A stretch of DNA of 64,000 bases, from assembly GCA_965660545.1 (NCBI GenBank), contig CBFIAF010000004.1:76655-140654 (forward strand), given 5' to 3'. The position numbers and the translations under genes are program-made. Below the pieces are notes generated by a model. The model saw only the letters and a list, made by a program, of their open reading frames with translations, was not told the DNA's origin and did no database searches. How positions within the stretch are numbered: the stretch's first letter is position 1; every line of letters begins with the position of its first letter. Of this stretch, positions 40,375 through 61,358 are shown in pieces. Origin of the DNA: Alphaproteobacteria bacterium (GTDB lineage: Bacteria > Pseudomonadota > Alphaproteobacteria > Bin95).

Positions 40375-41040
40375 TTAGAGCTTAAACCCTGGCCCATCAA
40401 AACGCCCGACAGTGGCGATTTGATCAACCGGATTGCGACGAAGCTTGGTTAGCATTTTTACCGGCTTGCCCATCGGCACGACAGCGGCGACAGCATAATT
40501 ACTCGGCGCGCCGAGCAGCTTCTGCACCTCTGGCTCCATAGCCGCAGCGAGCGTTGTGATCGTGCCGCCAAAGCCCGCCTGCCGCGCGCAAAGCAGTACA
40601 TTCCAAACGAACGGATAAATCGACCCACCGCTAATTACGCCAACCCGGTCAAGGAACTGGTCCATTGAGGCAACAACAGAAAGGTCCACCATAAACACCA
40701 GCACAACATCCGCCTTACGGAATGAATCCGTCAAATGGGTTGCTGGCTCTGTCGCTGCGATCTTAGCATCGGAAACTTTTGTTGGGTTAATGGTATTCCA
40801 GGGGCTTTCGCCATTCTTGACCTGGGCCGTGTAGCGTTTCGCCGCTGGGGCAGCCAGTTGGGCGAGTGCCTCACGAGTTTCAGCATCCCGCACGATGACG
40901 ACACGATTTCCTTGACGATTGCCGCCGGACGGCGCGAACCGGGCGTTATCCAGAATATCGAACAGCACAACATCGGGGAGCGATTCGCCCGTGAATTCGC
41001 GCGCCGAAAAGGTCATGCGCATTACATCATTCAGTTCCAT
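40375..41040 (-). CDS. Nitroreductase family protein
   Basis: NAD(P)H nitroreductase fold motifs ([19 protein letters not shown]). AAGGGG RBS before the ATG at 41040. Confidence 0.7.
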
Positions 41041-41053
41041 GGCGATTGCCCCC

Positions 41054-41782
41054 TTAAGGATATTTGCAGCGGTCCGCCGACACGACAATAAAACCGCGCC
41101 GACCTGTTACGATATTAAAGCGGAATTCCGTTGCTCCCATGACAACCCCATGTGACAATGGCAGCAGACCTTTGGCTTCACTGGTCTTACCGCCGACACG
41201 TGTGAACTTGATTGTGACTGGTTTTGCCGGATCAAACCAACCTTGTGGCCGACCGTCGCCGCCCAGCGCGGCCTTGCCTGTCCCGGTGACGACGATTGCG
41301 GACTTCGCGAACCCAATCCAGTTGTTCTTGCCCCGCTTGCCCTGCGTGCGGAGAATGAAGCGCTTGGTGATGGGGCGATTCTGACACTCATTCGCTGCCT
41401 TCGCCTCACGGATAACGAATGAGAGGCGTTTCGGCGGGACGCCGTTGTCCAGTTGCGATTGCAGCTGGCGAAACAATTCCTTCGCGTCCCCCGTCGGCAC
41501 ATCCTGCTCGTAACGGGCATTCCATTCAGCAACCTGAGTCTTAGAGCCACGAAGTTGGACGTTCAGGTTCTGATTCTCTGCGTCCAGGCTATTGAATTGG
41601 CCCTGTATCTCAGCCAGCTGCTCGCGCAGACTGCGCACTTCACGTTGTGCAAACGCAGTTCCTGTTTCATAGGCAAAGAAGCCTAGCAGCACCAGCGCGG
41701 TCAACGCGGCCGCAAACTTAACTAGCATCATCCGCCGTTTGCGCGTTTGGCGGCGGCGGCCTTCTCTTAATCCAACGGCCAT
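41054..41782 (-). CDS. Hypothetical membrane-anchored coiled-coil protein
   Basis: Basic N-terminus, one TM helix (LVKFAAALTALVLLGFFAY), then a long predicted coiled coil (REVRSLREQLAEIQGQFNSLDAENQNLNVQLRG...) and a C-terminal beta-rich domain. No recognisable family. Divergent from the cytochrome operon. Confidence 0.45.
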   Translation of the reverse strand: MAVGLREGRRRQTRKRRMMLVKFAAALTALVLLGFFAYETGTAFAQREVRSLREQLAEIQGQFNSLDAENQNLNVQLRGSKTQVAEWNARYEQDVPTGDAKELFRQLQSQLDNGVPPKRLSFVIREAKAANECQNRPITKRFILRTQGKRGKNNWIGFAKSAIVVTGTGKAALGGDGRPQGWFDPAKPVTIKFTRVGGKTSEAKGLLPLSHGVVMGATEFRFNIVTGRRGFIVVSADRCKYP

Positions 41783-41862
41783 ACAGTAATTGCTTTCTCA
41801 GCTAAGTTTTTGCGTCCAGCCATCGAACGACCGCCAGATCGCAACGCTTTTCCTGAAGTTCT

Positions 41863-42105
41863 ATGCCGCATCTTTCCTCCACGCAAGAAATTGGGAGATC
41901 ATCCATGCAGCAAGCCGGTGAAGCCCTTTCGGGAAGTGACCAACGCCGATGTGAGCGTTATCCTTGCCCCGATTATGCCGAAGCGTTCTTCGCCAGCCAT
42001 TGGCGTACTTGTGGTGTCGCCGATATTTCAGCAGGCGGTACCTTGCTCGAAACCACGAACCGCCTGATGTGGGTTATATTATCACGCTTTTCGTCTAATA
42101 TGTGA
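41863..42105 (+). CDS. PilZ-signature small ORF (possibly truncated/frameshifted c-di-GMP receptor)
   Basis: Contains RxxxR (RRCER) and, 23 residues later, an exact DxSxxG (DISAGG), the diagnostic c-di-GMP-binding motifs of PilZ domains. The ORF ends only 21 residues later; a +1 frame continues to about 42288 with plausible PilZ C-terminal strands. Confidence 0.45.
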   Translation: MPHLSSTQEIGRSSMQQAGEALSGSDQRRCERYPCPDYAEAFFASHWRTCGVADISAGGTLLETTNRLMWVILSRFSSNM

Positions 42106-42413
42106 CAGAAATGCTTGGTGTTTTCATTCGGCACACGGGCGATTGATTCCTGCTTCCTTCGATCTGTTGCCGCTCACCGAGCACCACAAGGTTCTCAGTG
42201 TCAGCCTGTGGCAAGACGCCCGCTATCTGCTTAGCGCCCGCCTTTGGAGCCCGCTAAGGGTCACCGATAGCGGTTTTTTTGCATAGGCGGAAACTATCAT
42301 CGTCGCCGATGGGAACAAAAAATTCCTCATGTATTTCTCCTATCAAGCTTCCCCATGTAATACTCCGATGCTAAAGTAGCGCTTCGTCAAACCCACACTC
42401 AGGGAAACGCCCA

Positions 42414-43334
42414 ATGGTAAAGTCTATAATACAATTTATATTTGCAGCCGCCCTCGCGCTGACCGCGGTTATCGCGCAGCCCGCTACTGCGGCAAATCTT
42501 GGCCCCAAAACCTGCCAAGAATGCCATCGTGCTGAGTACGAGGTGTGGAAAGGCTCCGCGCACTTCAAGGCCTATCGTGGCGCGCACAAGCACAAAAATG
42601 CAAAAGCGATTGCGGCGGCTTCCGGCACTGGCAAATCCATGCGGAAAAACAAAACCTGCATGACTTGTCATTACACGGTAATTGGCAGCAAGGCGAGAGC
42701 GAAAGCTGGCCCGTCCTGCGAGAGCTGCCACGGCGGCGCTTCCAAGTGGGTAAAAATCCATAATGACCTTGGCGCTGGCGTGAAATCATCTGCGGATGAG
42801 TCTGCTGCCCACAAAAAGTCACGCCTGGCTGCAGCACAAAAAGCCGGCATGATCCATTCATCAATGGTTTACGACATCGCTGAGAACTGTAATTCCTGCC
42901 ACACCATGCAGAAGATTGACCCTGCAATGGCCGGTAAGCTGATCGATGCAGGCCATCCAATCAATGGTAGTTATGAGCTGGTGAAGTATAGCCAGGGTCA
43001 AGTTCGCCATCGCTTCTATCCGCCGAACATCACCGAGAACCAGAAAATGAACAAGGCGGAACTATCCCGCATGTTCTTGACCGGCCACGCTGCTGGTCTC
43101 GTCTATGCGACGAAGGTTCTGGAAAGTGCTGATAATGCCAAGTACAAAGCAGCTATGGAACAACGCGTCGTTGATGCAAAGAAAGCAATCGGCGCTGCTA
43201 AGGGTTCTATACCGGCTGCGGGCGCACTTTTGTCCTCACCGACGGAAGCAAACGCCAGGAAGTTCGTCGCGGCGTTGCAGGGCAAGGACCTGTCCGGTGC
43301 TGTCGGCGGCATGTTGCCCTCTGAGTACAAATAG
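42414..43334 (+). CDS. Periplasmic tetraheme cytochrome c (cytochrome c554-like CxxCH...W..S.H type)
   Basis: Signal peptide (MVKSIIQFIFAAALALTAVIAQPATAA). Four CxxCH motifs (CQECH, CMTCH, CESCH, CNSCH). First gene of the 7-gene operon. Confidence 0.85.
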   Translation: MVKSIIQFIFAAALALTAVIAQPATAANLGPKTCQECHRAEYEVWKGSAHFKAYRGAHKHKNAKAIAAASGTGKSMRKNKTCMTCHYTVIGSKARAKAGPSCESCHGGASKWVKIHNDLGAGVKSSADESAAHKKSRLAAAQKAGMIHSSMVYDIAENCNSCHTMQKIDPAMAGKLIDAGHPINGSYELVKYSQGQVRHRFYPPNITENQKMNKAELSRMFLTGHAAGLVYATKVLESADNAKYKAAMEQRVVDAKKAIGAAKGSIPAAGALLSSPTEANARKFVAALQGKDLSGAVGGMLPSEYK

Positions 43335-43458
43335 GGCGATACTATTCGCGAATCCTGAGGCGGTAATTAATGGATGTGTGCTGGGGTGGGCATGCCTTCA
43401 TTGATACTAGCCAAAGGCCCGCGGTTTTCCGCATCACGCGCTCCAGGGGGATGGCGCT

Positions 43459-45081
43459 TTGGCCTTAGCGACAAGATTAGCGCGTCCGCAACGTTGGGAC
43501 CGTCCGTTCGATCCAGGTATGACTGCGGCAGATTTGCAACACCTAAAACTTGATCCGGTTGTCGCCGCAATTGATGCAGACGCGTTCCCAGGGACTATTC
43601 CACTTGACGGCATTCTAGCTAACGATTCGCGGGTCATTCGTTACAAAGCCGGTGAAATCGTCGTTCGCGAAGGCGATTACGGTAATTCCGCATTTCTTAT
43701 TATGTCCGGCGCTTGCGACGTTGTCGTAAATCCGCCGCTGACTGATGCTCAGCTTGGCCGTCAAACTGAAGCGCCAGCTAGCATTGCGCGCGCGATTTCA
43801 CAACTCTGGAAGCGCACTGTCGTGCCGGAAGTTCGTGACGTCAGCCGCTATGGCGATATCGCCGTCACAGAGACAGATCATCAGGCCGTTTTTCTGCAAG
43901 ATTATGGCATTGTGCTTGGCGGGCGCAGCTTGCCGCGCCTTGGCGCGCAGCAAATGTTTGGTGAGTTGGCCGCTCTGGGCCGTACCCCCCGCGCGGCAAG
44001 CGTCGTTTGTGTCGAAGACGCAGAGGTGCTTGAGATTCGCTGGCAGGGCCTGCGGGAGCTTCGTCGGTTTGATGCCGGCTGGCGCCGCCAGATCGACACC
44101 AACTACCGCGCCAATGCGCTGATCTCGCACCTGCAGGACACGCTGCTGTTCGATGGTCTGTCCGACGACGCGCTCCAATCCATCGCAGACGCGACATTGT
44201 TTGAAACTTATGGCTCCTTTGACTGGAGTTCTTCGTTCCAGCGCGCCGAAAGCGATGCGCGCCTGGATACAGAACCCGTCATTGCGCGTGAAGGCGAATA
44301 TCCAGATGGCCTCTTGCTTATCCGTGCAGGATTTGGCCGCGTTTCTGTGCGCCAAGGGGCAGCAGAACGCACACTGACTTACTTATCTGCTGGCGATCAT
44401 TTCGGCTTGAGCGAGCTTTATGCTGGCTGCAAGGGCGGTGGATCACCGATGGAAGCAACACTCCGCGCGGTCGGTTACGTGGACGCCCTACGTGTGCCAA
44501 CTAAGGTACTCGAAGAGCATGTCTTCCCGCGCATGAACACAGCGCCGGATAGCTTCCTACAGTTTGCAGCCCGCCCCCTTGCAGATGATTCACTGCAGGA
44601 ATGGGCAATCGAAGAGCGTTTCATCAACGGCACCATGGCGATGCTGATTGATTTGGATAGATGCGTGCGCTGTGACGATTGCGTGCGGGCCTGTGCGTCC
44701 ACCCACGGCGGCAACCCTCGTTTTGTCCGCCACGGCAAGATCAATGACCATTGGATGGTCGCCAATGCCTGTATGCATTGCTCTGACCCTGTCTGTATGA
44801 TCGGCTGCCCAACGGGCGCTATTCACCGGACGCAGGCGGGCGGCTCTGTTGTCATCAATGACGACAGCTGCATCGGGTGCGGTACATGCGCCAATTCCTG
44901 CCCTTATAATAATATCCGCCTCGTCGAAATTCGGGACCTGTCTGGAGCCCCGGTTCAGGACGAAGCAACCGGGCAGCCCATTCGTAAGGCGACAAAATGT
45001 GATCTTTGCGCAGGTATTCCTGGTGGCCCCGCCTGTGAGCGCGCCTGCCCGCACGGCGCTCTCCAGCGCGTTGATTTTTAG
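43459..45081 (+). CDS. Cytoplasmic protein with two cyclic-nucleotide-binding (CAP-effector-like) domains fused to a four-cluster [4Fe-4S] ferredoxin module (HybA/NrfC/PsrB-like)
   Basis: N-terminal two-thirds carry two cNMP-binding-like domains (FLIMSGACDVV; GELAALGRTPRAASVVCVEDAEVLEI). C-terminal 150 aa has four Cys clusters: CVRCDDCVRAC, CMHCSDPVCMIGCP, CIGCGTCANSCP, CDLCAGIPGGPACERACP. No signal/TAT peptide and no HTH. Confidence 0.75.
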   Translation: MALATRLARPQRWDRPFDPGMTAADLQHLKLDPVVAAIDADAFPGTIPLDGILANDSRVIRYKAGEIVVREGDYGNSAFLIMSGACDVVVNPPLTDAQLGRQTEAPASIARAISQLWKRTVVPEVRDVSRYGDIAVTETDHQAVFLQDYGIVLGGRSLPRLGAQQMFGELAALGRTPRAASVVCVEDAEVLEIRWQGLRELRRFDAGWRRQIDTNYRANALISHLQDTLLFDGLSDDALQSIADATLFETYGSFDWSSSFQRAESDARLDTEPVIAREGEYPDGLLLIRAGFGRVSVRQGAAERTLTYLSAGDHFGLSELYAGCKGGGSPMEATLRAVGYVDALRVPTKVLEEHVFPRMNTAPDSFLQFAARPLADDSLQEWAIEERFINGTMAMLIDLDRCVRCDDCVRACASTHGGNPRFVRHGKINDHWMVANACMHCSDPVCMIGCPTGAIHRTQAGGSVVINDDSCIGCGTCANSCPYNNIRLVEIRDLSGAPVQDEATGQPIRKATKCDLCAGIPGGPACERACPHGALQRVDF

Positions 45082-45092
45082 GGGCACCAAGA

Positions 45093-45923
45093 ATGATCGT
45101 CCGAACAGTCAACAGCGTCCGGCCCTTCGGCTACACCCTGGCCGCCATCGGTGCCGCTGTGATCGCCAGTCTCGCTTATTATTCGCATCAGGAACACCTG
45201 AAGCTCAGTGACGCCACCTTCGTCACGGGTTGGGTATTGCTGACAGCCATGGTCTCCCTAGCGCTTTTCAACATCCGCAAGCGTCTTTCCATGATGTCAA
45301 TGGGTAGGGCAGCTTATTGGCTTGCGCTGCACGTTGTCGTTGGCCTATTCGCTGTCGGAATGTTCATTGTCCACACAGGTGGCATGTGGGCCACAGGCTT
45401 CTATGAGCAAGTGATGGCTGGATTGTTTTGGGCGACGGCCCTGTCAGGCGTCTTCGGCTGGCTATATCAGCGCGCGATGCCAAGGCGCCTTACACGCATT
45501 GGCTATGAAGTCGTTTATGAACGAATCCCGGCTGAAATTGCCGCCCTTCGCGAGGAAGCTGAAGAAGCCACCCTTGAAGGCGTAGGTGCTAGCGGCGAAC
45601 CAACCCTCGGCCGCTTCTATTCAGAAACCATGCAGGACTTCTTCCGTCGGCCGCGCTTTATGTTAAGCCACCTCTTTGGTGCAGGTGCAGCCCAACAGTG
45701 GGTTGACCTCCGGTTCCGCACGGTGCGCGGGCTAGTTGGCTCACAAGAAGAACCCGCCCTTGCCCGACTTGAAGCTGCCGCAAGACGCAAACTCTCTATA
45801 GACGCTCATTACGCCATTCAACGCTCCTTGAAGCTTTGGGTGGCGGTCCACGTCGTGCTATCTGCAGCGATGTTAACGCTTGCAGTATGGCACCTCATCC
45901 TGGTGCATGTGTACGCCCGATGA
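45093..45923 (+). CDS. Polytopic inner-membrane protein with conserved intramembrane histidines (candidate b-type heme/quinone-interacting subunit)
   Basis: 276 aa with about 5 predicted TM helices. His pairs sit inside helices (HVVVGLFAVGMFIVH; VHVVLSAAMLTLAVWHLILVH), with a roughly 120 aa soluble loop. The gene is 11 nt after the FeS gene and its stop overlaps the next start (ATGA). Confidence 0.55.
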   Translation: MIVRTVNSVRPFGYTLAAIGAAVIASLAYYSHQEHLKLSDATFVTGWVLLTAMVSLALFNIRKRLSMMSMGRAAYWLALHVVVGLFAVGMFIVHTGGMWATGFYEQVMAGLFWATALSGVFGWLYQRAMPRRLTRIGYEVVYERIPAEIAALREEAEEATLEGVGASGEPTLGRFYSETMQDFFRRPRFMLSHLFGAGAAQQWVDLRFRTVRGLVGSQEEPALARLEAAARRKLSIDAHYAIQRSLKLWVAVHVVLSAAMLTLAVWHLILVHVYAR

Positions 45924-48028
45924 CTGAAGACAAAAATCGCTTCGCCCACGATCGATCACCCTATGAGCGCCCGAATTTTCCTTTCCGGTGCGGCAGGGAG
46001 GCAGCCTTTGGCAAACCGTGCCCACGCGGCCCGAGCGCTGGCGGTAATTGCCAGGGGATCTCGGACTGCACGCCATTCCGGACACGCAAGATCGTAACAA
46101 ACACTGAAACCGGTGAAGAAACAGAGACCCAGCGTTGGGAATGCCGCCGCCCGCAACATGCTGGCGGCCCCTGTGCTGAAGGTCCACGGCCAGACGGCAC
46201 ATGCTCTTGCATCCATCCGCCATGTGCACCTAAGCTGACTATCCGGCGTCAGCGCGGCCGCTGGGCAATGCTTGCAGTTGCCGCAATGGTAGCCATGGTA
46301 TTGGCTTTTGTCGGCGCTGCTGGCGGTATCATTGGCCCTAAACCAGATGCAAACGGCATTCTTAGTCATGTTGGCTGGCCGAGTTCAGTCAACCCTGGTC
46401 CGCTTTCCGGCAAGCATGAACAATTCACGGCCAAAGACGGCTGTATTTCATGCCATGTCGGCCATTCAGACACATTAACAGGCTGGGCTGGTGCAATATT
46501 CGAGCGCACCACTATTTCTGAGTCCTGCGTCTCGTGCCACAGCTTCGGAGAGAAACAAGCTAATTCCGACCCTAAAGCCCAATCGCCAATGGCATTCGCC
46601 GCCCATAACACGAAATTCCCGAACCGCACGAATGCCCCAACAGCATCGTGCACGGGCTGCCACACGGAACATAAAGGTGTGGGTGCATCGATCACGCCGA
46701 TGGATGATGGCCAGTGCTCTGCATGCCACACCACCAAGTTCGACAGTTTCTCCAAATCCCATCCGGCGTTTGGGACAAATTTCCCGCATGAAAGTGCACG
46801 AACCATCAAGTTTCAGCATGGCAAGCACCTAGAAACGCATTTTGTAGACCAGCGCTATATCGATAGAGCGCCAAAGAATGGCTGCATCTCCTGCCATACA
46901 GACCAAGTTGATGGGCGTTTGCTACCGGGCAGTTTTGAGAATGGCTGTGCCGCATGTCATGAACTTGCGATTAAAGAACAGGGAATGGTCGTCTTCGGCC
47001 TTCCTGAATTGAGTGACCCTGAATTGACTGCAGAAGCCCGTGACTCATGCGGCTTTCCTGTGCCACAGCGTGAGCCGGCCCGTGCGACCCTTGAAGCCCT
47101 GGCTGAGGCACTTCCGACAATGCAGGCGCTTGGTGAAAACGCCGAGTCTGGCAACCTGAATGGCGTCATGACTGCAGTTGAGGCCTTAAGTGAGGCCCAG
47201 ACCGCGATTGCCGAAGCGCGGGATGAGCTTGCAGAGGCTGTCGACATGTCAGAAGCCGTTTCCCTTGATTCGCTCTCCCCGATCGCAGCATTCCTTCTGG
47301 CTGTTCCGGCTGATGATGCAGATGAATATAGCGAAGCAGCAGCAGCCTTCCTGATTGCCGCTGCCGCCGACGGGCAGGTCCCGCTTGCCGAAGCAATCGA
47401 CGCTAAGGGTGGTGATGCAACCGCGCTGCTGGCAGGCCTTTCACCCGAGTTAGTGACGGAAGTTACTTGCGCTTGGGCCGCAAACACGGAATATGAACCT
47501 AAGCAAGACCCTGAACCGGGCGCTGGCTGGGCTGCGCAAGAGCTGCAAGTGTCTTATCTGCCAACAGGCCATGCGGATGCTGTGACCAAGGGATGGATTG
47601 CACTTGGTCTAGCAAATCGTGGCAGTCAAGATGAAGGTGTCGAAGCTTTTGCTGACCTCGTGCTCAGTGCGGGCGACGGGCCGGGTCGTTGCTTTAAGTG
47701 TCACGTCGCACCAGCGGCAGATGCTGAAAAACAAGTCGTACAATGGGCTATTCCACGCGCAGATGTTCGCCCATTCACAACTTTCAATCATGATCCGCAC
47801 TTAAATGTACTAGATCAGGGAGCCGGATGTGCGACATGCCATAGTCAGTTGGAGCCGGGCGCAACCTTGGCTGATGGGCAATCTCGCCCAGGGCCGCATG
47901 CAAACGACTTCAAGCCGATCGATCAAGCAACTTGCAAAGATTGTCACCGCCCGGGCGCGGTTCGGCAGGATTGCGCACTTTGCCACCGCTACCATAGCAA
48001 TCCATCCATCCGGAAACGGACGTTGTGA
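45920..48028 (+). CDS. Membrane-anchored multiheme cytochrome c (10 CxxCH) with Cys-rich N-terminal region
   Basis: Ten CxxCH motifs arranged 6+4, split by a roughly 200 aa Ala/Glu-rich low-complexity linker. One hydrophobic helix (WAMLAVAAMVAMVLAFVGAAGG) sits after a roughly 110 aa N-terminal region containing 9 Cys (C-x10-C-x8-C-x5-C ... C-x9-C-x7-C-x-C-x4-C). The start at 45920 is inferred from the ATGA overlap. Confidence 0.75.
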   Translation: MTEDKNRFAHDRSPYERPNFPFRCGREAAFGKPCPRGPSAGGNCQGISDCTPFRTRKIVTNTETGEETETQRWECRRPQHAGGPCAEGPRPDGTCSCIHPPCAPKLTIRRQRGRWAMLAVAAMVAMVLAFVGAAGGIIGPKPDANGILSHVGWPSSVNPGPLSGKHEQFTAKDGCISCHVGHSDTLTGWAGAIFERTTISESCVSCHSFGEKQANSDPKAQSPMAFAAHNTKFPNRTNAPTASCTGCHTEHKGVGASITPMDDGQCSACHTTKFDSFSKSHPAFGTNFPHESARTIKFQHGKHLETHFVDQRYIDRAPKNGCISCHTDQVDGRLLPGSFENGCAACHELAIKEQGMVVFGLPELSDPELTAEARDSCGFPVPQREPARATLEALAEALPTMQALGENAESGNLNGVMTAVEALSEAQTAIAEARDELAEAVDMSEAVSLDSLSPIAAFLLAVPADDADEYSEAAAAFLIAAAADGQVPLAEAIDAKGGDATALLAGLSPELVTEVTCAWAANTEYEPKQDPEPGAGWAAQELQVSYLPTGHADAVTKGWIALGLANRGSQDEGVEAFADLVLSAGDGPGRCFKCHVAPAADAEKQVVQWAIPRADVRPFTTFNHDPHLNVLDQGAGCATCHSQLEPGATLADGQSRPGPHANDFKPIDQATCKDCHRPGAVRQDCALCHRYHSNPSIRKRTL

Positions 48029-48036
48029 GGATTAAG

Positions 48037-49809
48037 ATGATGGAAGAGAGAAAGATGGAATTTGGAATCCGCCCCTTGGGGCGCCGCCTTCTAATTGCTG
48101 GCGCTTTCGCCGCTGCGGTATTTGGCATGCCAATTACAGCAGTAGCAGCCGAAAAAGAAGATCCGCATGCGGATCTTATGGCCGAGGAAAGCTACCCAAC
48201 AGCCGCCCAATGTGGTGCCTGTCACACCCAGGTCTATCGCGAATGGGCGTCGTCTAACCACGCATACGCATCGATTTCGCCGATGTTCCACAAGTTCGAG
48301 CAGAAGATTAATGATCTCTCGAGCGGCACCATCCGAGGCTTCTGCGTACGGTGCCATCAACAGATCGGCACGCAGCTCAATGAACGCCGCGACCTCCCGC
48401 TTTGGGAACGCAATCAGATTTCACGCGAAGGCATTTCCTGCGTGACGTGCCACCGCGTCCGTGAAGAATTCGGCAAGGTCAACGGCGAACGCCGGATCAT
48501 CCCAGGCCAGGTCTACACGCCTGTCAGCGGTGTTGGCGATGGCAAAAAGCTAAAGGAAATCATTGAGAACCGTAGCGAATATCGTGTTGCGGTTAGCGAA
48601 AAGGAACGCGGGGCCCAGATTCACACGGGCGTTTACAAGTTCCCACAGATTTCTAAGTCAGAATTCTGTGTGTCTTGTCACCAGGTCGCTGTGAACCCAG
48701 GCATCAAGCTTGAAGTTGTTTGGGAGCAGTATAGAAACTCCCCAGCAGCCGCTAATGGCGTCACGTGTCAGGATTGCCATATGGGCAAAGTGCCAGGCCG
48801 GGCTGACGGTTATGCAACCGGGCCCGTCGCAATCGTTAATGGTGAAGAAATCAATCCGGACCGCAGGCACTCCAACCATGCCTTCTACGGCCCTGGCTAC
48901 CCAATTGCTCATCCTGGCATCTTCCCACACAACCCAGATGCAGCTGAAATTCCCATCGAAGACTGGCTGGAATTCGACTACCGCTCTAAGTGGGGCTCGG
49001 AAGAATTTGAAGAGAAAGTCGCCAACGGCGAGATTGATGAAGACAGCCTGCCAGACGCATGGTCCGATTCAGTTGACCGTGAGGAAGCTTGGGAAATCAT
49101 CCAGGAGAACGTCGGACTTCTGGAAGAAAAACGCGACCTTCGCCGTCAAGTGATGGAAAATGGTTCTCGTCTTGATGGCCCGTTCTTCGCTAGCGCGCCA
49201 AAACAAGGGTCCTCCCTCAGCTTTGACATCAAACTGACCAACACAGATGACGGCCATAACCTGCCGTCTGGTTCTCTCGGTGCCCAGCCTGAAATCTGGC
49301 TGAATGTTGCTGTCGTATCGCCCAGCGGCAAGACAGTATGGGAATCTGGTTACGTTGATGGGAATGGCGATATGGCCGACATTCACTCCCTAGAGGTAAG
49401 AGCGGGCAAAATCGAATATGATGACCAGCTTTTCAACTTGCAAACCAAGTTTCTATTCACGAACGTTAAGGGGACTGAACGCGAATGGTATCTGCCAATA
49501 AATATCGATATCGATCAGCTTCCATTCATCCGCCCAGCAAACGTGCCGACGACTATCCTAAACCATGCGCCATTTATCCGCATGGAAGGTCGTTCGATTC
49601 CACCACTTGGGTTTCGCAACGCTAGCTACACCGTGCCGGCAGATGCGTTGACGGAAAAAGGTACTTACAAAATGGCCGTCCGACTGCGGAGCCGCGCCGA
49701 ACCGATCTACTTCATGCGGTTCGTCGATTCGACGCCGGAAATGGAAGAAGCCATGAACAGCTGGATGCTTGATTTCCATTCCTACACCGTGGAATTTGAA
49801 GTCAACTGA
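48037..49809 (+). CDS. Secreted pentaheme cytochrome c with large heme-free C-terminal domain
   Basis: Signal peptide. Five CxxCH (CGACH, CVRCH, CVTCH, CVSCH, CQDCH), all in the first roughly 280 aa. A roughly 300 aa C-terminal domain has no heme motif. GAGGA RBS before the ATG at 48037; the ORF track starts at a GTG at 48025 that overlaps the upstream stop. Confidence 0.8.
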   Translation: MMEERKMEFGIRPLGRRLLIAGAFAAAVFGMPITAVAAEKEDPHADLMAEESYPTAAQCGACHTQVYREWASSNHAYASISPMFHKFEQKINDLSSGTIRGFCVRCHQQIGTQLNERRDLPLWERNQISREGISCVTCHRVREEFGKVNGERRIIPGQVYTPVSGVGDGKKLKEIIENRSEYRVAVSEKERGAQIHTGVYKFPQISKSEFCVSCHQVAVNPGIKLEVVWEQYRNSPAAANGVTCQDCHMGKVPGRADGYATGPVAIVNGEEINPDRRHSNHAFYGPGYPIAHPGIFPHNPDAAEIPIEDWLEFDYRSKWGSEEFEEKVANGEIDEDSLPDAWSDSVDREEAWEIIQENVGLLEEKRDLRRQVMENGSRLDGPFFASAPKQGSSLSFDIKLTNTDDGHNLPSGSLGAQPEIWLNVAVVSPSGKTVWESGYVDGNGDMADIHSLEVRAGKIEYDDQLFNLQTKFLFTNVKGTEREWYLPINIDIDQLPFIRPANVPTTILNHAPFIRMEGRSIPPLGFRNASYTVPADALTEKGTYKMAVRLRSRAEPIYFMRFVDSTPEMEEAMNSWMLDFHSYTVEFEVN

Positions 49810-49888
49810 TTGGGGATCGCCTGCGGCGCGCCAAGCTGCCAAAGAGAACAGTTAAGGCGCGCCGCAGGCGAACGAGGAGAATAGAGGC

Positions 49889-51415
49889 GTGACACCAAGT
49901 TTTCTAAAGATGACCGGGCGCATTGCAATGGCGACAGCGGCTTCCGCACTGGCGATGATGGTCGCCACTGGCGGCCCTGCATATGCGGCGAGTGCCCATG
50001 ACGACAGTCCGCGCAAGATGGATCCTAATGTCAAACCGTCAGAGCATGACTCTGATGTCTTCAAGGCGGATCCAACATACGAAGAGAAAGTGTATGACGC
50101 TGAGCGCCAACTCGAAATCTATGGCGGCAAGCGCAACATTGAGGAGCCACGCCCGATCCTAGAAGTTGGTCGTCCGCAATATGTCGAAGGTCCTTTCGAC
50201 GAAGGCATTAATGTAATTGGCGAAAAGAACCTTTTGTTCCCATCGTTTTCAGTTTTTGGTGACGTCCGTACAGCGGTAGCCGCGAATGACGTTGGCGGTG
50301 ATGTTGTGTACGAGTTTGCCAACCGCCTGAACCTGGACCTCGACCTTAAGCTAACCGCCACAGAACGTGTTCACGGCTTCTTCCGCCCGATCGACGAGAA
50401 CGGTAAGTTCATAGGATATCGGACCGGCGATAAGAGGGGCAATAATGGCCGTGACGGTAAGCTCGATGCAAACCCAGAAACATTATTCTTTGAAGGTGAT
50501 ATTGGTGCCATATATGGCGGGTTAGCAGACGAATACACAACCTTTGACCTGCCAATCGCATTTGGTTTGACACCCTTCGTCATGCAGAATGGGCTTTGGG
50601 TTGATGAGGCCTTTGTTGGGGGCGGCATATCACTCGCTGCAATGAACAGTCGTACACTTGATATCACAAACATGGACATCACCTTCTTTGGTGGTTTCGA
50701 TGAAATCGATTCACCGGCATTCGTTGGCCAGGACGGTGTCCTAGATACAGACGACGTATCAATTTATGCCGTAGCCGCTTTCGTCGATTGGTTCGAAGGC
50801 TATTCTGAGTTCGGTATCGGCTATGTCGACGGAAGAGAGCAACTCAACGATATTGACTATTTCAACTTTACCGGTGCCTATACGTCACGGTATGGCGGCT
50901 GGCTCTCCAACTCCGTCAGGCTATTTGGCGCTGTGGGTCAAGATACAAACGGCCGTGCTAAAACGGCCGATGGCTTTGCCTTACTCATAGAAAACTCTTT
51001 GATCACGTCCAAGCCAGATGTCTTTGTTCCCTATTTCAATGGCTGGGTTGGTATCGATAAGCCGCAATCCCTCGCACGCAACAACGGCGGGCTATTGAAG
51101 AACACCGGCATCACGTTCGAGAACGACGGCATGACCTCTTTTCCGACGCTGGATGATACCGCACAAGACACATTCGGTGGTGCCATCGGCGTCAACTATC
51201 TGTTCAGTCTAGACCAGCAGCTCGTGGTTGAAGCGTCTACGGTTCAAAGACTTGATACTGCCTCACCTGCTCAGGGTGGTCAGTATGCTGTTGGCTTCCG
51301 CTATCAGATCCCAGTCACGAACCGGGTTATCCTGCGTACAGACGGTATCTACGGCATTCGGGAAAGCCAGGAAGACATTGGCGGCGTTCGCTTCGAGCTG
51401 CGCGTTAAATTCTAA
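49889..51415 (+). CDS. Outer-membrane beta-barrel protein (porin-like; candidate cytochrome conduit)
   Basis: Signal peptide (MTGRIAMATAASALAMMVATGGPAYAASA), alternating amphipathic beta-strand pattern, Gly/aromatic-rich, and a C-terminal ...RFELRVKF ending in Phe, the OMP sorting signature. Confidence 0.65.
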   Translation: MTPSFLKMTGRIAMATAASALAMMVATGGPAYAASAHDDSPRKMDPNVKPSEHDSDVFKADPTYEEKVYDAERQLEIYGGKRNIEEPRPILEVGRPQYVEGPFDEGINVIGEKNLLFPSFSVFGDVRTAVAANDVGGDVVYEFANRLNLDLDLKLTATERVHGFFRPIDENGKFIGYRTGDKRGNNGRDGKLDANPETLFFEGDIGAIYGGLADEYTTFDLPIAFGLTPFVMQNGLWVDEAFVGGGISLAAMNSRTLDITNMDITFFGGFDEIDSPAFVGQDGVLDTDDVSIYAVAAFVDWFEGYSEFGIGYVDGREQLNDIDYFNFTGAYTSRYGGWLSNSVRLFGAVGQDTNGRAKTADGFALLIENSLITSKPDVFVPYFNGWVGIDKPQSLARNNGGLLKNTGITFENDGMTSFPTLDDTAQDTFGGAIGVNYLFSLDQQLVVEASTVQRLDTASPAQGGQYAVGFRYQIPVTNRVILRTDGIYGIRESQEDIGGVRFELRVKF

Positions 51416-51463
51416 TCACGATCGTATTGCTAGCCAAAATGGCACCGAGATTGGGGAAGAACG

Positions 51464-52729
51464 ATGGATAATTTGGCGAACTATGTCGCCATAGGTGCAG
51501 CCGGGCTGCTGGGCCTTTACATTTTGTCTCTGCTGATGGGCTCGCTCCGTCAGCAGAGCCAAATGGCGCGGCATTATGAGGAACAATCACAGCTATTCCG
51601 CGCACGTGCGGAAGGCTTGCAGAGGATCCGTGCTGAAGAGATCGAGAAAACCCAAAACACCTGGGCAGGCCTTCGGAAATTCAAAGTTGCCCGTAAGATC
51701 AATGAGATCACAGATTGCCACTCCATCTACCTTGAACCTCATGACGGTCGGCCCCTACCGCCGTTTGAGCCAGGCCAGTTTCTAACGTTCAAGTTTGCTG
51801 TGCCCGATCAGCCTAGCGACGTAATACGTTGCTACTCCCTGTCAGACGCACCTGGCCGTGACTACTACAGGATTACCGTCAAGAAGGTGCCACCGCCCCG
51901 TGGCAAGCCTGAAATAGCACCTGGTGTGTCCTCCACCTTCGTAAATGAAGTCTTGAATGAAGGCGATATAATTGATGTACGTGCGCCCAATGGCGGCTTC
52001 TATCTGAAGCGTGAACATAAACGTCCAGTCGTCCTAATCGGTGGCGGCGTTGGCATCACACCAGTGCTCAGCATGCTGAACTACATTGTGGAGCATGAGC
52101 CGCAGCGGGAAACATGGTTCTTCTTTGGGGCGCCCAATAAAGCCGGCCATATTATGAAGGATCACCTAGCCCAAATTGCTGCGGAAAATCCTAATATCCG
52201 CATGAACATTTGCTACAGCGACCCATCAGATGACGATGTGTTTGGGGAAGATTACGACCATCACGCCCGCGTTTCCGTAGAGCTGTTCAAGAAAGTCCTG
52301 CCTTCTAACAATTTCGAATATTACTTCTGCGGCCCACCGCCAATGATGAATGCGCTTGATGCGGACCTCAAAGCTTGGGGCGTACCAGAAGCCGATATTC
52401 ACTCTGAAGGCTTTGGCCCTGCTTCAGTTAAGAAGCCCAAACCACCTGCTGTAGAAGGTGCTGCAGAATTAGCATCTGTATCGGTAACGTTTGCTAAATC
52501 TGGCAAGACATTGGATTGGACGCCTGCTGCTGGAACAATTCTTGATTTGGCGGAAGCAAACGGTGTTGATGTTGCTTCGGGTTGCCGGGCCGGCAGCTGT
52601 GGTACTTGCCTCACCGCCGTTATAGAAGGCGATGTGGATTACGCAACGCCGCCAGACGCTCCGATCGAAAATGGCTCTTGCCTCGCGTGTGTCGGCACCC
52701 CGAAAGGGCCAATCAAGATAAACGCCTAA
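51464..52729 (+). CDS. Membrane-anchored FNR-family flavoprotein reductase with C-terminal plant-type [2Fe-2S] ferredoxin domain
   Basis: N-terminal TM helix (VAIGAAGLLGLYILSLLMGS), FAD motif RCYSLSD, NAD(P) motif GGGVGITP, C-terminal CRAGSCGTCL...CLACV 2Fe-2S motif. Last gene of the operon. Confidence 0.75.
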   Translation: MDNLANYVAIGAAGLLGLYILSLLMGSLRQQSQMARHYEEQSQLFRARAEGLQRIRAEEIEKTQNTWAGLRKFKVARKINEITDCHSIYLEPHDGRPLPPFEPGQFLTFKFAVPDQPSDVIRCYSLSDAPGRDYYRITVKKVPPPRGKPEIAPGVSSTFVNEVLNEGDIIDVRAPNGGFYLKREHKRPVVLIGGGVGITPVLSMLNYIVEHEPQRETWFFFGAPNKAGHIMKDHLAQIAAENPNIRMNICYSDPSDDDVFGEDYDHHARVSVELFKKVLPSNNFEYYFCGPPPMMNALDADLKAWGVPEADIHSEGFGPASVKKPKPPAVEGAAELASVSVTFAKSGKTLDWTPAAGTILDLAEANGVDVASGCRAGSCGTCLTAVIEGDVDYATPPDAPIENGSCLACVGTPKGPIKINA

Positions 52730-52752
52730 ACCAAGTTCGATCTGAAAAGATT

Positions 52753-52790
52753 ACGGTCCGCAACCAACTGGTTTCGGGCCGTATTTTTTT
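52753..52790 (+). terminator. Rho-independent terminator closing the cytochrome operon (possibly bidirectional)
   Basis: Stem ACGGTCCG...CGGGCCGT followed by ATTTTTTT, 24 nt after the reductase stop. The convergent CoA-transferase gene ends at 52822. Confidence 0.6.
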
Positions 52791-52821
52791 GAATGCCAAT
52801 CTAGTCAGGCAAGGGCAGAGG

Positions 52822-54024
52822 CTAAACGATCCCACTTGCCTTCAGTGATGCAATATCCTCACTGGAAAGGTTGAGGACTTCACAAAGGATTTCATCCGTG
52901 TGATGCCCAATAGGCGGACCGGCATGGGCAATCCGCCCAGGCGTGCCCGTTAGATTAGGAGAAACCCCAGGCATTGGTATGTCGCCCAATTCCTCATCCG
53001 GAACGGTCACAATGTTCTTGCGGGCCTCAAAATGGGGATCTTCAGCGATATCAGCGGCGGTATAGATCCCGCCGAAGGGTACATTGCCGCCAACAAGCCG
53101 CGCTTCGATCTCCGCGAAGGCGTGCGCGCTAATCCAATCTCCCAGCAGCGCTTCAAGTTCATCAGCCCGCTCAATTCTGGCAGCGCTTTGGGCGTAGCGG
53201 GGATCTGTCGCAAGTTCTGGCATGCCAATGGCGTCTGCCAATCTTTTAAACACGCCATCACCACCAGCCGCAATCTGGACGTAGCGCCCATCTTTGGTTT
53301 CGAATGTCCCGGCGGGAGAGAATGTAGGATTGCGGTTGCCAATTCGCTCCCGGACCTCCCCATTCATCATATACTTGGAGATTAGGTCTGCTGTAATGCG
53401 GAATGGCGCTTCGTAGAGGCCAAGGTCAATCATCTGCCCCACTCCCCCCTGCGCATCACGCTGATAGAGCGCTAACATCGCTGAAAGCGCACCAAAAGTG
53501 CCGGTATTATAGTCTGCCGTCGGAAAAGCAGGGCGAACGGGGAAGCGATCTGGGAACCCGGTTGGGTACATATAGCCCGAGAAACCAAGCGCAATCCGAT
53601 CATAGCCCGATCGCTTGGAGTATGGCCCCGTTTGCCCATAACCAGACACGCGAACCATAATCAGACGTGGATTAACGGCCTTTAGGTCTTCCCAGCCTAT
53701 ATTCCATCGCTCCAACGTGCCCGGCGTGAAGTTCTCCATCACGATGTCTGCAGTCGCGGCCAGGTCCCTTAGAATCTTCTGGCCTTCAGGAACCCGCAGA
53801 TTGAGCGTGATCGATTTCTTGTTGCGGCCCTCGATTAGCCAGTTTGGTGGTCGACCAGCTGCACCATCAACAGGCGTGCCACGCAACGCATCGCCGCGAC
53901 CAGGCTGCTCGACTTTAATGACCTCAGCGCCAAAATCGCCAAGCAACGTGGCACCGAACGGTCCAGCAATCAGCGTGCCGATGTCCAGCACACGCACACC
54001 GGCAAGTGGCAAGGGCGTCGTCAT
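52822..54024 (-). CDS. CaiB/BaiF family III CoA-transferase
   Basis: N-terminus MTTPLPLAGVRVLDIGTLIAGPFGATLLGDFGAEVIKVEQP is the family signature. 400 aa. Confidence 0.85.
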   Translation of the reverse strand: MTTPLPLAGVRVLDIGTLIAGPFGATLLGDFGAEVIKVEQPGRGDALRGTPVDGAAGRPPNWLIEGRNKKSITLNLRVPEGQKILRDLAATADIVMENFTPGTLERWNIGWEDLKAVNPRLIMVRVSGYGQTGPYSKRSGYDRIALGFSGYMYPTGFPDRFPVRPAFPTADYNTGTFGALSAMLALYQRDAQGGVGQMIDLGLYEAPFRITADLISKYMMNGEVRERIGNRNPTFSPAGTFETKDGRYVQIAAGGDGVFKRLADAIGMPELATDPRYAQSAARIERADELEALLGDWISAHAFAEIEARLVGGNVPFGGIYTAADIAEDPHFEARKNIVTVPDEELGDIPMPGVSPNLTGTPGRIAHAGPPIGHHTDEILCEVLNLSSEDIASLKASGIV

Positions 54025-55628: not shown

Positions 55629-56135
55629 CTATTGCTGCAGAGACTGTAATCCGGCGGTCAAGCCGCGCAAGGAAAATGGCAGCTGAATCGCCTCACGCCG
55701 TAAGTCATAAAACATTAACCAACCATTGGCGCCGGCCTGCATCGCGGCCAAAAGCTGCGGCTCAACATCAAGCTCGACATGACACCCTCGCTTGTCGCAG
55801 AACTTAAATGCCCCCCAGCCATCTACGCCTTGGTCCGTGCGCACACGCAAACCATCCGGCAGGTGAACAGCGCCAAGCGGCATGTTAATCACCACAACCG
55901 GCCCACTTTTCCCAGACTTGAAGCCGAGTGTGATGTTCGCCACCTGCTTGCCTTGGTATGAGACCCGCTGGAACACAAAACAGACCTCCTGCCGTTGCCC
56001 CCCAGCTTCACAGGCTTCCGTCCAATCCCGGAATGTCCGCCCGGTTTGGCGCACTGACTGCGCCTCAGCAACACTGCTCAAAACGACAAGCATCGCCAAT
56101 GCCATTACCGTGACGGTTTGAACTGCTCGAATCAT
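55629..56135 (-). CDS. Invasion-associated locus B (IalB) family protein
   Basis: Signal peptide and IalB-like sequence (WTEACEAGGQRQEVCFVFQRV...). 168 aa. Confidence 0.75.
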   Translation of the reverse strand: MIRAVQTVTVMALAMLVVLSSVAEAQSVRQTGRTFRDWTEACEAGGQRQEVCFVFQRVSYQGKQVANITLGFKSGKSGPVVVINMPLGAVHLPDGLRVRTDQGVDGWGAFKFCDKRGCHVELDVEPQLLAAMQAGANGWLMFYDLRREAIQLPFSLRGLTAGLQSLQQ

Positions 56136-59618: not shown

Positions 59619-60107
59619 TTGGCACCACGTGCTAATATCTCTAGGTCGAATCGCCAAGCCGAAAGACGAGGGCTTAAGTTGTCGCAACTACCTAACATCT
59701 TGGCCGAGCTTCTAGGCGGCGAATGGGCGGACCATCGCCGCGGGCAATCCTTGGCGGAAGCCAGCATGGCCGCCGCCGTTCTCGTGGCGACCGCTGAAGG
59801 TGACGTGAGTTTTACTGAGCGCGCATTGATCGATCAAGCCATTAATGCGCTTTCAGACCTTGGTGCGATTTCCACCCAAGACGCAGCGGCACTGTTCAAT
59901 AAATTCGTTGACGGCACTCGTGCGAATAGCAGCCAGGGTCGCCGCCAAGCGCTGGATGCTCTGGCCAGAATTGAAGGCATTGCTGAGGCTGCAACCATCG
60001 TGCTGCGCATTGCAGATGCCGTTGCAAGTGCTGATGGCTCAGCCTCTGCCGCTAAAATCACTGTAGTACAAGATATCGCAGCGGCACTAAACACAGCGGC
60101 TTCTTAG
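59619..60107 (+). CDS. TerB-like (tellurite-resistance TerB family) protein
   Basis: All-alpha TerB-like sequence (AEASMAAAVLVATAEGDVSFTERALIDQAINAL...). The start codon is uncertain. Confidence 0.55.
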   Translation: MAPRANISRSNRQAERRGLKLSQLPNILAELLGGEWADHRRGQSLAEASMAAAVLVATAEGDVSFTERALIDQAINALSDLGAISTQDAAALFNKFVDGTRANSSQGRRQALDALARIEGIAEAATIVLRIADAVASADGSASAAKITVVQDIAAALNTAAS

Positions 60108-61339
60108 GAGTACTTACGCCGGTCAACCAAAGCCACGCCATCATTGATCAGCTTTTCAATCTCATCAGCGCTGATACCAGCTTCCTCCAGAACCGCCCGC
60201 GTGGCAGAGCCAAACTTCGGCGGGGCAGAGCGCGCGCCACCCGGTGTACGAGATAGCTTCGCCTGAACGCCAAGCGCACCATATCCATCATCAGCACCAA
60301 CGCGCATCTGTCGGGAGATTGTGTGCGGGTGCTCCATTACATCGGGGATCGTATTGACAGGCCCCGCCGGAACGCCCTTTTGCAGAAGCCCCAATGCCAG
60401 CGGCTCGCATTCATATTGCGCCAGTTTATCTGCCAGCAACGCTTTTAGTACGTCACGGTTTGATGACCGGTCGGCATTGTTCTTAAAGCGCAGGTCATCT
60501 GCCAGTTCAGGCGCATCAATCGCATCAGCCAGCCGTTTGAACTGACCATTGTTGCCAATGGCCAAGAACAGGTCTTTGTCCTTCGTTGGGAACACGTCAT
60601 AGGGATAGACGTTCGGATGGGCGTTGCCGGTAATGACGGGCGGCTTACCGCTCATCAGGTAGTTATTCCCTTGCGGATGTAGCAGTGCCACGGCGCTGTC
60701 ATATAGGGTGATATCCAGGAACTGCCCCTTGCCTGATTTACCACGCTCCAAAAGCGCCATCAGGATCGCGATGGCGGCATTCAGGCCCGTACCCATGTCC
60801 ACCATTGGCGTGCCGACGCGGACTGGGCCAGATTCTGGCGAACCGTTGACGCTCATCATGCCCGACATTGCTTGAATCACGGCGTCATAGCCTGGAAAGC
60901 CACCGAGCGGCCCATCTGAACCGAAACCGGTTACGCGACAATGGACGAGCAGCGGATAGCGCTCCGCCAGAAAGTCTTTGTAGCCGAGACCCCATCTCTC
61001 CAGCGTGCCTGGCTTGAAGTTCTCAATCAGAACATCCGCGTCCTCGAGCAGCTTACCAAGCACAGCTTTTCCGGCCTCGCTGGAGAGATCAAGGCCGATA
61101 GAGCGCTTATTGCGGTTGACGCCCTGGTAATACGCACTCTCGCCATCATCGTTGAATGGAGGGCCCCAATCCCGTGTTTCATCGCCCTGAGGTGGCTCGA
61201 CCTTGATCACTTCCGCGCCATGGTCGGCAAGGATCATCGTGCAATACGGCCCACCCAGAACGCGGGTGAGGTCAATAACCTTATACCCGGCAAGGGCGCC
61301 ACCGCTCATGGTTGCGAATGGGGAACTATCAGGAGACAT
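60104..61339 (-). CDS. CaiB/BaiF family III CoA-transferase
   Basis: LAGYKVIDLTRVLGGPYCTMILADHGAEVIKVEPP family signature. The start is set at the ATG at 61339 rather than the ORF start at 61447. Confidence 0.8.
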   Translation of the reverse strand: MSPDSSPFATMSGGALAGYKVIDLTRVLGGPYCTMILADHGAEVIKVEPPQGDETRDWGPPFNDDGESAYYQGVNRNKRSIGLDLSSEAGKAVLGKLLEDADVLIENFKPGTLERWGLGYKDFLAERYPLLVHCRVTGFGSDGPLGGFPGYDAVIQAMSGMMSVNGSPESGPVRVGTPMVDMGTGLNAAIAILMALLERGKSGKGQFLDITLYDSAVALLHPQGNNYLMSGKPPVITGNAHPNVYPYDVFPTKDKDLFLAIGNNGQFKRLADAIDAPELADDLRFKNNADRSSNRDVLKALLADKLAQYECEPLALGLLQKGVPAGPVNTIPDVMEHPHTISRQMRVGADDGYGALGVQAKLSRTPGGARSAPPKFGSATRAVLEEAGISADEIEKLINDGVALVDRRKYS

Positions 61340-61358
61340 TTTATAACTTTCTCGGACC

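Follow-up and report, generated by a model that had tools for sequence, protein, structure and literature searches.

Why is the gene for an outer-membrane beta-barrel found in the middle of a cytochrome operon? The question is raised by a 64,000-nucleotide stretch of DNA, here called the window, from an alphaproteobacterium (GenBank assembly GCA_965660545.1, contig CBFIAF010000004.1, forward-strand positions 76,655 to 140,654). Seven plus-strand genes lie at 42414-52729 of the window in the order ptdD-E-F-G-A-B-C, and the barrel, PtdB, is encoded directly after the pentaheme cytochrome PtdA. An initial annotation of this DNA had proposed that PtdB is a porin sheath for a cytochrome. That proposal is partly supported. 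An outer-membrane barrel is indeed strictly paired with a cytochrome, but the barrel has 18 strands and no Mtr features, and a sheath of the Mtr type is unlikely. PtdB is very probably coupled functionally to PtdA. By analogy, it may be a channel through which a small soluble redox substrate reaches PtdA, Cyc2/ExtI-like rather than MtrB-like, a reading that we regard as evenly balanced between right and wrong.

Compared by gene content, taxa and habitats, the cluster corresponds to ptdABCDEFG, named by Elbon, Stewart and Glass in UBA11136, Alphaproteobacteria of marine oxygen-deficient zones (ODZ) (bioRxiv 10.1101/2023.11.21.568154). The gene content matches one-to-one, and the order found here is a rotation of their naming order. 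The window has the pentaheme PtdA adjoining a predicted outer-membrane porin, with PtdC to PtdG clustered around them. Homologues with identical synteny occur in MarineAlpha/Rhodospirillales metagenome-assembled genomes (MAGs), and the hosts match the marine Alpha- and Gammaproteobacteria of the paper. In that study PtdB is called a "porin" and PtdF 'ferric reductase-like', ptdAB is reported to be highly transcribed in ODZ Alphaproteobacteria, and the authors describe the function as 'completely unknown'; they neither count strands nor analyse partners, and they propose no mechanism (bioRxiv 10.1101/2023.11.21.568154). The ptd name was not found in the other literature searched. Because the same operon had already been named with a porin, the initial annotation coincides with a published hypothesis, and a porin in this cytochrome operon as a candidate porin-cytochrome complex is rated as already known. 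What goes beyond the literature is the 18-strand Occ/MOMP/AlgE-like architecture, the invariant PtdA-PtdB pair with interchangeable input, the conserved lumen and loop L7, and the lack of Mtr features.

The PtdB barrel and its lumen

Conservation and entropy figures for PtdB refer to 43 aligned homologues. The same 43 homologues were used to build an AlphaFold2 model, whose secondary structure was assigned by DSSP and whose confidence is given as the predicted local distance difference test (pLDDT). The features of PtdB are as follows.

49889..51415, plus strand: PtdB, outer-membrane 18-strand beta-barrel, precursor of 508 aa
49889..49987, plus strand: signal peptide, aa 1-33, cleavage after AYA, read from the sequence; no region of the alignment is more variable (entropy 2.94)
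49988..50233, plus strand: N-terminal periplasmic extension, aa 34-115, a candidate docking or plug segment (entropy 1.25, 27% near-invariant columns, pLDDT 46-66)
50234..51412, plus strand: barrel domain, aa 116-508, 18 antiparallel strands with short periplasmic turns and the beta-signal G-x-R-x-E-x-R-x-K-F, from DSSP of the model, topology and conservation
50576..50608, plus strand: loop L3, aa 230-240, FVMQNGLWVDE, a candidate in-folded loop (Q233, N234, G235 and W237 invariant; entropy 1.07)
51062..51169, plus strand: loop L7, aa 392-427, 36 residues, a candidate constriction or binding loop (entropy 0.68, 42% near-invariant, pLDDT 77-91)

The open reading frame is present as predicted, with a GTG start behind a Shine-Dalgarno-like GAGGAG/AGAGG. 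Most of what the initial annotation had read from it was borne out. The Sec signal is seen in the N-terminus, MTPSFLKMTGRIAMATAASALAMMVATGGPAYA followed by AS (…GGPAYA/AS), and the roughly 480 mature residues are 475. The amphipathic strand periodicity corresponds to 18 predicted strands with one hydrophobic and one polar face. The C-terminal LRVKF belongs to ...GVRFELRVKF, a beta-signal of the beta-barrel assembly machinery (BAM) type that is nearly fully invariant: G499, E503, R505, K507 and F508 are found in 43/43 homologues and R501 in 42/43. The mature protein is acidic, with 73 D+E vs 40 K+R, and the barrel strongly so (median net charge -28). PtdB has no lipobox and no heme motif because it has 0 Cys and only 3 His. 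It has no match at E <= 0.1 in Pfam, including the MtrB_PioB (PF11854), Porin_O_P (PF07396), OprD (PF03573) and AlgE families, and none at E <= 0.1 in NCBIfam. Searches of PDB sequences by phmmer with PtdB and with the 43-sequence family profile gave noise only.

The model has a mean pLDDT of 78.5 and a predicted template modelling score of 0.73. The barrel is closed and comprises residues 116-508, with pLDDT by block mostly 80-94, and 18 antiparallel strands are counted in it, back from the C-terminal Phe. The periplasmic turns have 2-6 residues, with one exception of 17, and the extracellular loops have 3-36 residues (L1 3 aa, L5 7 aa, L9 5 aa). The fold resembles that of the 18-strand OprD/Occ family, Campylobacter MOMP, AlgE, E. 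coli ChiP and LamB, and Foldseek returns the same set of barrels; in the fold comparison OprP scores 14.6 and MtrB lies outside the top 60. The likeness is one of fold, as identity to OprD/Occ, MOMP, AlgE, ChiP and LamB is 8-13% and there is no similarity at the level of hidden Markov models. None of these channels shares the conserved N-terminal extension of 80 aa or the obligate cytochrome synteny of PtdB.

The strand count is 18 and not the 26 of an MtrB-type sheath. The standard barrel formula gives a C-alpha diameter of about 33 A for 18 strands, of which about 23 A is left after side chains and before any in-folded loops. By the same formula, a barrel of 26 strands has about twice this cross-section. 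The initial annotation had itself named a lumen too small for a heme domain as an argument against its proposal, and by that criterion, with a lumen of at most about 23 A by formula, an Mtr-type sheath is disfavoured.

The conservation pattern points to the inside of the barrel. Lumen-facing strand residues are more conserved than lipid-facing ones (entropy 0.69 vs 1.30, p = 8e-9). Nineteen charged lumen residues are near-invariant, the basic ones including R127, R160, R344, R471, R483, R501, R505 and K507 and the acidic ones D125, D152, E202, D204, D263, E307, E368, D485 and E503. L7 is the most conserved long segment of PtdB, and its peptide FE[TN]D[GA][LMI]TxFP is diagnostic enough to seed a genome scan. 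The loops L2, L4, L5, L8 and L9 are variable, with entropy 1.75-2.2. In OprD/Occ channels, L3 and L7 fold in to form the constriction and the surface loops are variable. By analogy, the conserved L3 and L7 and the variable surface loops of PtdB would follow the OprD-type channel pattern.

The extension that precedes the barrel carries the pattern DPxYE..YD...IYGGK...PRP..E.GRP.Y.EGPF, conserved over aa 61-115. Many homologues are 600-1255 aa long (P0243, P0249, P0242/P0244, P0099, P0273-P0345) and have N-terminal additions, among them OmpA, FimV_N+LysM, Cds6_C NTF2-like and weak, sub-threshold AMIN-like modules; others have low-complexity extensions of 300-780 aa rich in Pro, Ser, Thr and Gln. 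Since such modules precede the extension in other lineages, the N-terminus of PtdB is placed in the periplasm, where a docking or tethering role would fit. A fusion of cytochrome and barrel of the Cyc2 type was also considered. There is no CXXCH in the N-terminal extensions (116-783 aa) of 29 longer PtdB homologues, and with no heme domain preceding PtdB in these proteins the fusion is ruled out.

PtdA and PtdB across genomes

More than 1287 clusters at 90% identity match PtdB at E <= 1e-3, all labelled 'hypothetical'. Among 1.84 billion proteins searched, the family has 846 representatives at 50% identity at E <= 1e-3 and 311 at E <= 1e-30. Relatives are found in 302 GTDB species-representative genomes. 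The hosts are mostly marine Alphaproteobacteria/Rhodospirillales MAGs, together with MAGs labelled Gamma- and Betaproteobacteria, and most of them are pelagic and heterotroph-like. One host has been cultured, Ferruginivarius sediminum WD2A32, and the family is also present in Ferrovibrio sp. EaCA-1, a MAG by its record title. The nearest genome match is an Alphaproteobacteria MAG (locus L005) with 95% identity.

Which protein is the partner of the barrel? The two cytochrome genes that the initial annotation had placed upstream of ptdB are there, with 10 CXXCH motifs in 45920-48028 (PtdG) and 5 in 48025-49809 (PtdA). It had taken both products to be secreted. The pentaheme is secreted and soluble, but the decaheme is anchored in the inner membrane by a transmembrane helix with an RRQRGR flank.

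48025..49809, plus strand: PtdA, pentaheme cytochrome, secreted, a member of the c552/ExtKL 'PHC' family; it contains a long helix, and its C-terminal part is an Ig-like beta-sandwich

The seven proteins of the window were compared by tblastn with 86 related loci, and the position of PtdA was counted in the 76 loci with more than 2 kb of upstream DNA. In 76/76 the next gene upstream of PtdB, in the same orientation, encodes PtdA. The alignable parts of the two genes are less than 800 nt apart in 73/76; in the remaining three, PtdB has N-terminal extensions that account for the distance. Even a distant family member with 45% identity and a 400-aa N-terminal extension (L086) has PtdA upstream. 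With its close homologues and this fixed upstream gene, the PtdB family is real and far beyond chance.

All seven ptd genes are present in 36/53 fully flanked loci; the remaining loci keep PtdA-PtdB and swap the input module. The second architecture is seen in Ferrovibrio (L079, 11504-16258, minus strand) and also in L014, L023, L025, L029, L047, L059 and L063. The opposite strand of the Ferrovibrio locus encodes an FAD pyridine-nucleotide oxidoreductase fused to two cNMP-binding domains and Fer4 (697 aa), a protein of 328 aa that matches no Pfam family, and a multiheme protein with an N-terminal FHA domain (553 aa). Since PtdA-PtdB is kept while the input module is replaced, the logic of the system is conserved in two architectures. 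All-vs-all clustering of 1048 open reading frames from the 86 loci gave only seven recurrent families, those of ptd (76, 76, 65, 56, 56, 51 and 48 loci), the next cluster being found in 11 loci. No recurring type II secretion system, lipoprotein cytochrome, TonB receptor or iron regulator was found in this set. PtdA and PtdB are therefore the minimal invariant module, and the invariant partner of the barrel is the pentaheme PtdA and not the inner-membrane-anchored decaheme PtdG.

PtdA has no lipobox, and neither has the tetraheme PtdD. It matches the NCBIfam ExtKL model weakly and is similar to 5ZE8. Against the DmsE/MtrA family model (TIGR03508) it scores 35.9 bits vs a cutoff of 192. The heme domain is modelled poorly (pLDDT ~30-65), so that only the C-terminal half of the model and the 5ZE8 match are usable. 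The 'PHC' family has been described as grouping c552, Geobacter ExtKL/Gsu2801 and cytochromes of cable bacteria (2025, PMC11976967). A large subgroup of PtdA homologues (P0149, P0161, P0163 and others) has 660-760 aa, compared with 594 aa in the window. BLASTP query coverage of these longer proteins is split at ~50%, and they would therefore have an insertion or extra domain in mid-protein.

Electron input to PtdA

What could supply PtdA with electrons? The other five genes of the operon are listed here.

42414..43334, plus strand: PtdD, secreted tetraheme c554-like cytochrome, 306 aa, 4 CXXCH, Sec signal; Pfam Cytochrome_C554 at E 2.9e-13; homologue in 56 loci
43459..45081, plus strand: PtdE, cytoplasmic protein with cNMP-binding domains and a 4Fe-4S dicluster ferredoxin module, 540 aa; Pfam cNMP_binding at E 2.1e-24 and several Fer4 matches, no transmembrane helix or signal; 51 loci
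45093..45923, plus strand: PtdF, polytopic inner-membrane protein, 276 aa, from conserved His pairs and the transmembrane profile; no Pfam match above cutoff
45920..48028, plus strand: PtdG, inner-membrane-anchored decaheme cytochrome, 10 CXXCH; its ATG at 45920 shares bases with the ptdF stop codon (ATGA)
51464..52729, plus strand: PtdC, N-terminal transmembrane anchor, FNR-type FAD/NAD(P) reductase and C-terminal 2Fe-2S ferredoxin, 421 aa; NAD_binding_1 at E 1.3e-20, Fer2 at E 3.9e-12; 48 loci

PtdC aligns with the reductase domain of an NCBIfam flavohemoprotein model, has its transmembrane helix at residues 8-26 and is predicted to be the entry point for electrons from NAD(P)H. PtdF has two conserved His pairs, each 13 residues apart, H80/H94 and H253/H267, in two transmembrane helices (57 aligned homologues). 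Two such pairs in transmembrane helices are the bis-heme-b signature of ferric-reductase/NOX-type domains. PtdF is thus predicted from its sequence to be a di-heme b, ferric-reductase/NOX-like transmembrane electron carrier, in agreement with the annotation of Elbon et al. Taken together, PtdC, PtdE and PtdF resemble a NOX-like electron exporter that is split into several proteins and does without quinones.

PtdG consists of a Cys-rich N-terminal domain of ~115 aa, one transmembrane helix (residues 144-162 of the long open reading frame), hemes 1-6, a heme-free spacer of ~240 aa and hemes 7-10, and it has 14 non-heme Cys. It is placed in the inner membrane because of the single helix and its RRQRGR positive-inside flank, and the N-in topology is supported by the FHA domain at the N-terminus of the Ferrovibrio equivalent. 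The homologues in L001-L004 have 667-689 aa. No PDB sequence match and no TIGR03508 (DmsE/MtrA-family) match was found for PtdG. An OmpA peptidoglycan-binding domain is present in one homologue (L085, 3749-6079), a hint that PtdG reaches across the periplasm and is in contact with the cell wall.

The regulators of the exporter would be cyclic nucleotides, through the cNMP domains, and possibly phosphorylation, through FHA domains. FHA domains are fused to a PtdC homologue (L001, 629-2641) and to the PtdG-like multiheme protein of Ferrovibrio (L079, 11504-13165), and these fusions hint at Ser/Thr-kinase control besides that by cyclic nucleotides. Guanylate/adenylate cyclase genes, one with a CHASE2 sensor, are found within ~6 kb of ptd in two unrelated loci (L002, 17812-20097; L086, 9582-11423). 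They are a possible source of ligand for the cNMP domains of PtdE, in a pattern that is not recurrent overall.

The function of PtdB

How could a barrel and a chain of cytochromes work together? In the mechanism proposed here, cytoplasmic NAD(P)H would reduce PtdC, first at FAD and then at the 2Fe-2S centre, and PtdC would pass electrons to PtdE, the cNMP-regulated 4Fe-4S protein. From PtdE they would cross the inner membrane via the di-heme-b PtdF to the decaheme PtdG, move on to the soluble tetraheme PtdD and arrive at PtdA on the inner side of the outer membrane. The docking site of PtdA would be the mouth of PtdB that faces the periplasm, and the contact would probably be made via the conserved N-terminal extension of the barrel. 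A small soluble redox solute would then enter or cross the charge-lined constriction of PtdB to be reduced, the candidates being metal ions, metal chelates such as Fe(III)-ligand, and oxyanions.

Two known systems have features in common with this mechanism. The logic of PtdB would be like that of Cyc2, a small barrel that is unable to sheath a multiheme wire, with a cytochrome at the periplasmic mouth and a soluble substrate that enters. For the 16-strand Cyc2 it has been concluded that the cytochrome can do no more than plug the barrel at its periplasmic mouth, and that Fe2+ has to come into the pore (PMC8406198). In Cyc2 a monoheme domain and a 16-strand OprP-like barrel form one fusion protein, whereas PtdB has 18 strands, no heme motif and a separate pentaheme. 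The second system is that of ExtI and ExtKL in Geobacter (extHIJKLMNOPQS). Like ptd, it has a small porin beside a PHC pentaheme, a 10/12-heme, a 4-heme and a b-type membrane cytochrome. Deletion of ExtI abolishes the ability to reduce selenite and tellurite but not that to reduce Fe(III)-citrate; ExtI is classed in the Porin_O_P family, and its authors also considered an anchoring role (PMC5877670). Membership in Porin_O_P (PF07396) is where the two differ, as PtdB has no Pfam match to that family.

The fold and strand count of the barrel, its fixed pairing with PtdA, the conservation pattern, the cofactor motifs and the topologies come from the analysis itself, and the channel function, the substrate, the contact and the electron direction are inferred. 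Several points weigh against a channel that serves PtdA. The physical contact between PtdA and PtdB is deduced from gene adjacency, and the outward direction of the electrons is taken from the type of input, an NAD(P)H reductase. That L3 and L7 fold in, and how wide the pore really is, has been judged from conservation, pLDDT and analogy, and the N-terminal extension is modelled at low confidence. A conserved polar lumen would also be expected with a partner polypeptide threaded through PtdB. The net charge of the barrel and the mixed lining of invariant Arg and Asp/Glu do not single out a substrate.

A wider reading of the same mechanism is tentative and somewhat doubtful. Ptd would be a split NOX/ferric-reductase-like machine, bypassing quinones and gated by cyclic nucleotides, that exports NAD(P)H electrons to a PtdA/PtdB 'reaction chamber' in which soluble seawater species are reduced. 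In this case the species reduced could be Fe(III) in organic complexes, for reductive iron acquisition, O2, which would give extracellular superoxide, or iodate or another oxyanion.

The rival that survives best, if an unlikely one, is an insulated wire of the Mtr/Pio type, in which the heme part of one cytochrome, PtdA or with lower probability PtdD or PtdG, runs through PtdB and presents a surface heme to insoluble or macromolecular acceptors. PtdB is like MtrB/PioB/MtoB in that an outer-membrane barrel gene lies next to multiheme genes and electron transfer across the envelope is proposed. A precedent for a porin-cytochrome complex exists, and the strict adjacency of barrel and cytochrome genes would fit it. 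The extracellular loops are mostly short (L1, L5, L9) and a lumenal heme could sit near the surface, the conserved polar lumen could be an interface between proteins, and relatives in the PHC family have been reported to be related to archaeal extracellular cytochrome nanowires (PMC11976967). However, in the crystal structure of MtrCAB the 26-strand MtrB is filled by MtrA, with a solvent channel of ~5 A left (PMC7198977). A barrel with 18 strands instead of 26 has about half the cross-section that MtrA already fills, and the conserved L3 and L7 probably occupy part of its lumen. MtrB sheathes a soluble decaheme, MtrA, and works with a surface lipoprotein, MtrC. PtdB has no PF11854 match, no partner from the MtrA/DmsE family and no surface lipoprotein cytochrome. 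Pfam and NCBIfam give no membership in the MtrB_PioB, DmsE/MtrA or OmcA/MtrC families, the decaheme of the operon is anchored in the inner membrane, no other neighbour such as a secretion system recurs, and PtdA is a two-domain protein of 560 aa and not a slim heme wire.

A structural tether is improbable. In this case PtdB would anchor the cytochrome chain (PtdA, PtdG) to the outer membrane or peptidoglycan, the pore would be incidental and the redox chemistry purely periplasmic. The peptidoglycan-associated modules on PtdB in other lineages (OmpA, FimV_N+LysM or the weak, sub-threshold AMIN-like ones) and the OmpA domain on the L085 homologue of PtdG are in its favour, as is the anchoring role considered for ExtI (PMC5877670). 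Yet an anchor needs neither a conserved lumen with 19 near-invariant charges nor an invariant 36-residue loop, and the PtdB of the window has no peptidoglycan-binding domain in Pfam.

Could the electrons flow inward instead? PtdB would then admit a reduced donor such as Fe2+, reduced sulfur or Mn2+, to be oxidised by PtdA. The small-barrel logic of Cyc2 would suit this, the family occurs in a Ferrovibrio-assigned MAG and in Ferruginivarius, the acidic barrel is compatible with cation selectivity, and c552 of T. tepidum has been suggested to act in sulfur metabolism (PMC11976967). Electron uptake is nevertheless distinctly improbable. The NAD(P)H/FNR-type reductase and the NOX-like di-heme b come with no quinone or energy-coupling module, the flow of electrons from Fe2+ to NAD(P)+ would be uphill judging from standard potentials, and the hosts are for the most part MAGs of a pelagic, heterotroph-like kind.

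A nutrient porin of the ordinary kind, present in the operon by chance, has the fold of nutrient-specific channels (OprD/Occ, ChiP, LamB) in its favour, but it is rejected on synteny as very improbable, since PtdA adjoins PtdB in 76/76 loci from very divergent genomes with two operon architectures, and no membership in any porin family is found at the sequence level. A pore for a filament or for the export of PtdA was rejected on size, the lumen being at most ~23 A before loops.

Why does it matter which of these is right? The evidence presented here is computational, and it concerns a system that is widespread, transcribed in ODZs and mechanistically unexplored. Among marine Alpha- and Gammaproteobacteria that have not been cultured, the cluster is common. 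If NAD(P)H electrons are exported via a small channel-cytochrome pair to a soluble acceptor, extracellular or periplasmic, the system could bear on the identity of Fe(III) reducers at the secondary nitrite maximum, where the question of Fe(III) reduction was raised by Elbon et al. (bioRxiv 10.1101/2023.11.21.568154), and, more speculatively, on marine extracellular superoxide production and iodate reduction. A PtdA/PtdB 'reaction chamber', if true, would be a third redox architecture across the outer membrane, besides the Mtr sheath and the Cyc2 fusion, and one that is widespread in pelagic marine bacteria. What is added to the published idea is the argument that PtdB is not Mtr-like. With PtdA-PtdB as a minimal module and one cultured host, the system is directly testable.

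The surroundings of the operon were also searched. No RNA family was found by Rfam in 41000-53500, and a promoter and terminator scan of 41700-53000 gave no excess over the shuffled expectation. Unrelated housekeeping and metabolic genes (MnmA, nitroreductase, CoA-transferases, PhyH, IalB) flank the cluster. The gene of the IalB family lies 4 kb downstream of the cluster (55629-56135, minus strand), and in L001 such a gene is found directly after ptdB (11748-12299). Downstream there are also paralogous family III CoA-transferases (52822-54024 and 60104-61447, both minus strand), MmgE/PrpD, a PhyH dioxygenase and an ABM monooxygenase; this region appears to be devoted to organic-acid catabolism, with no relation to ptd. 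Upstream of ptdD there is a gap of 630 nt, in which an 80-aa open reading frame (41863-42105, plus strand) shows the motifs RxxxR and D-x-S-x-x-G and matches PilZ below threshold (E 9e-4, 20 bits vs a cutoff of 22.5). From these motifs, its product may be a c-di-GMP-binding mini-protein or a PilZ remnant beside a cNMP-regulated operon.

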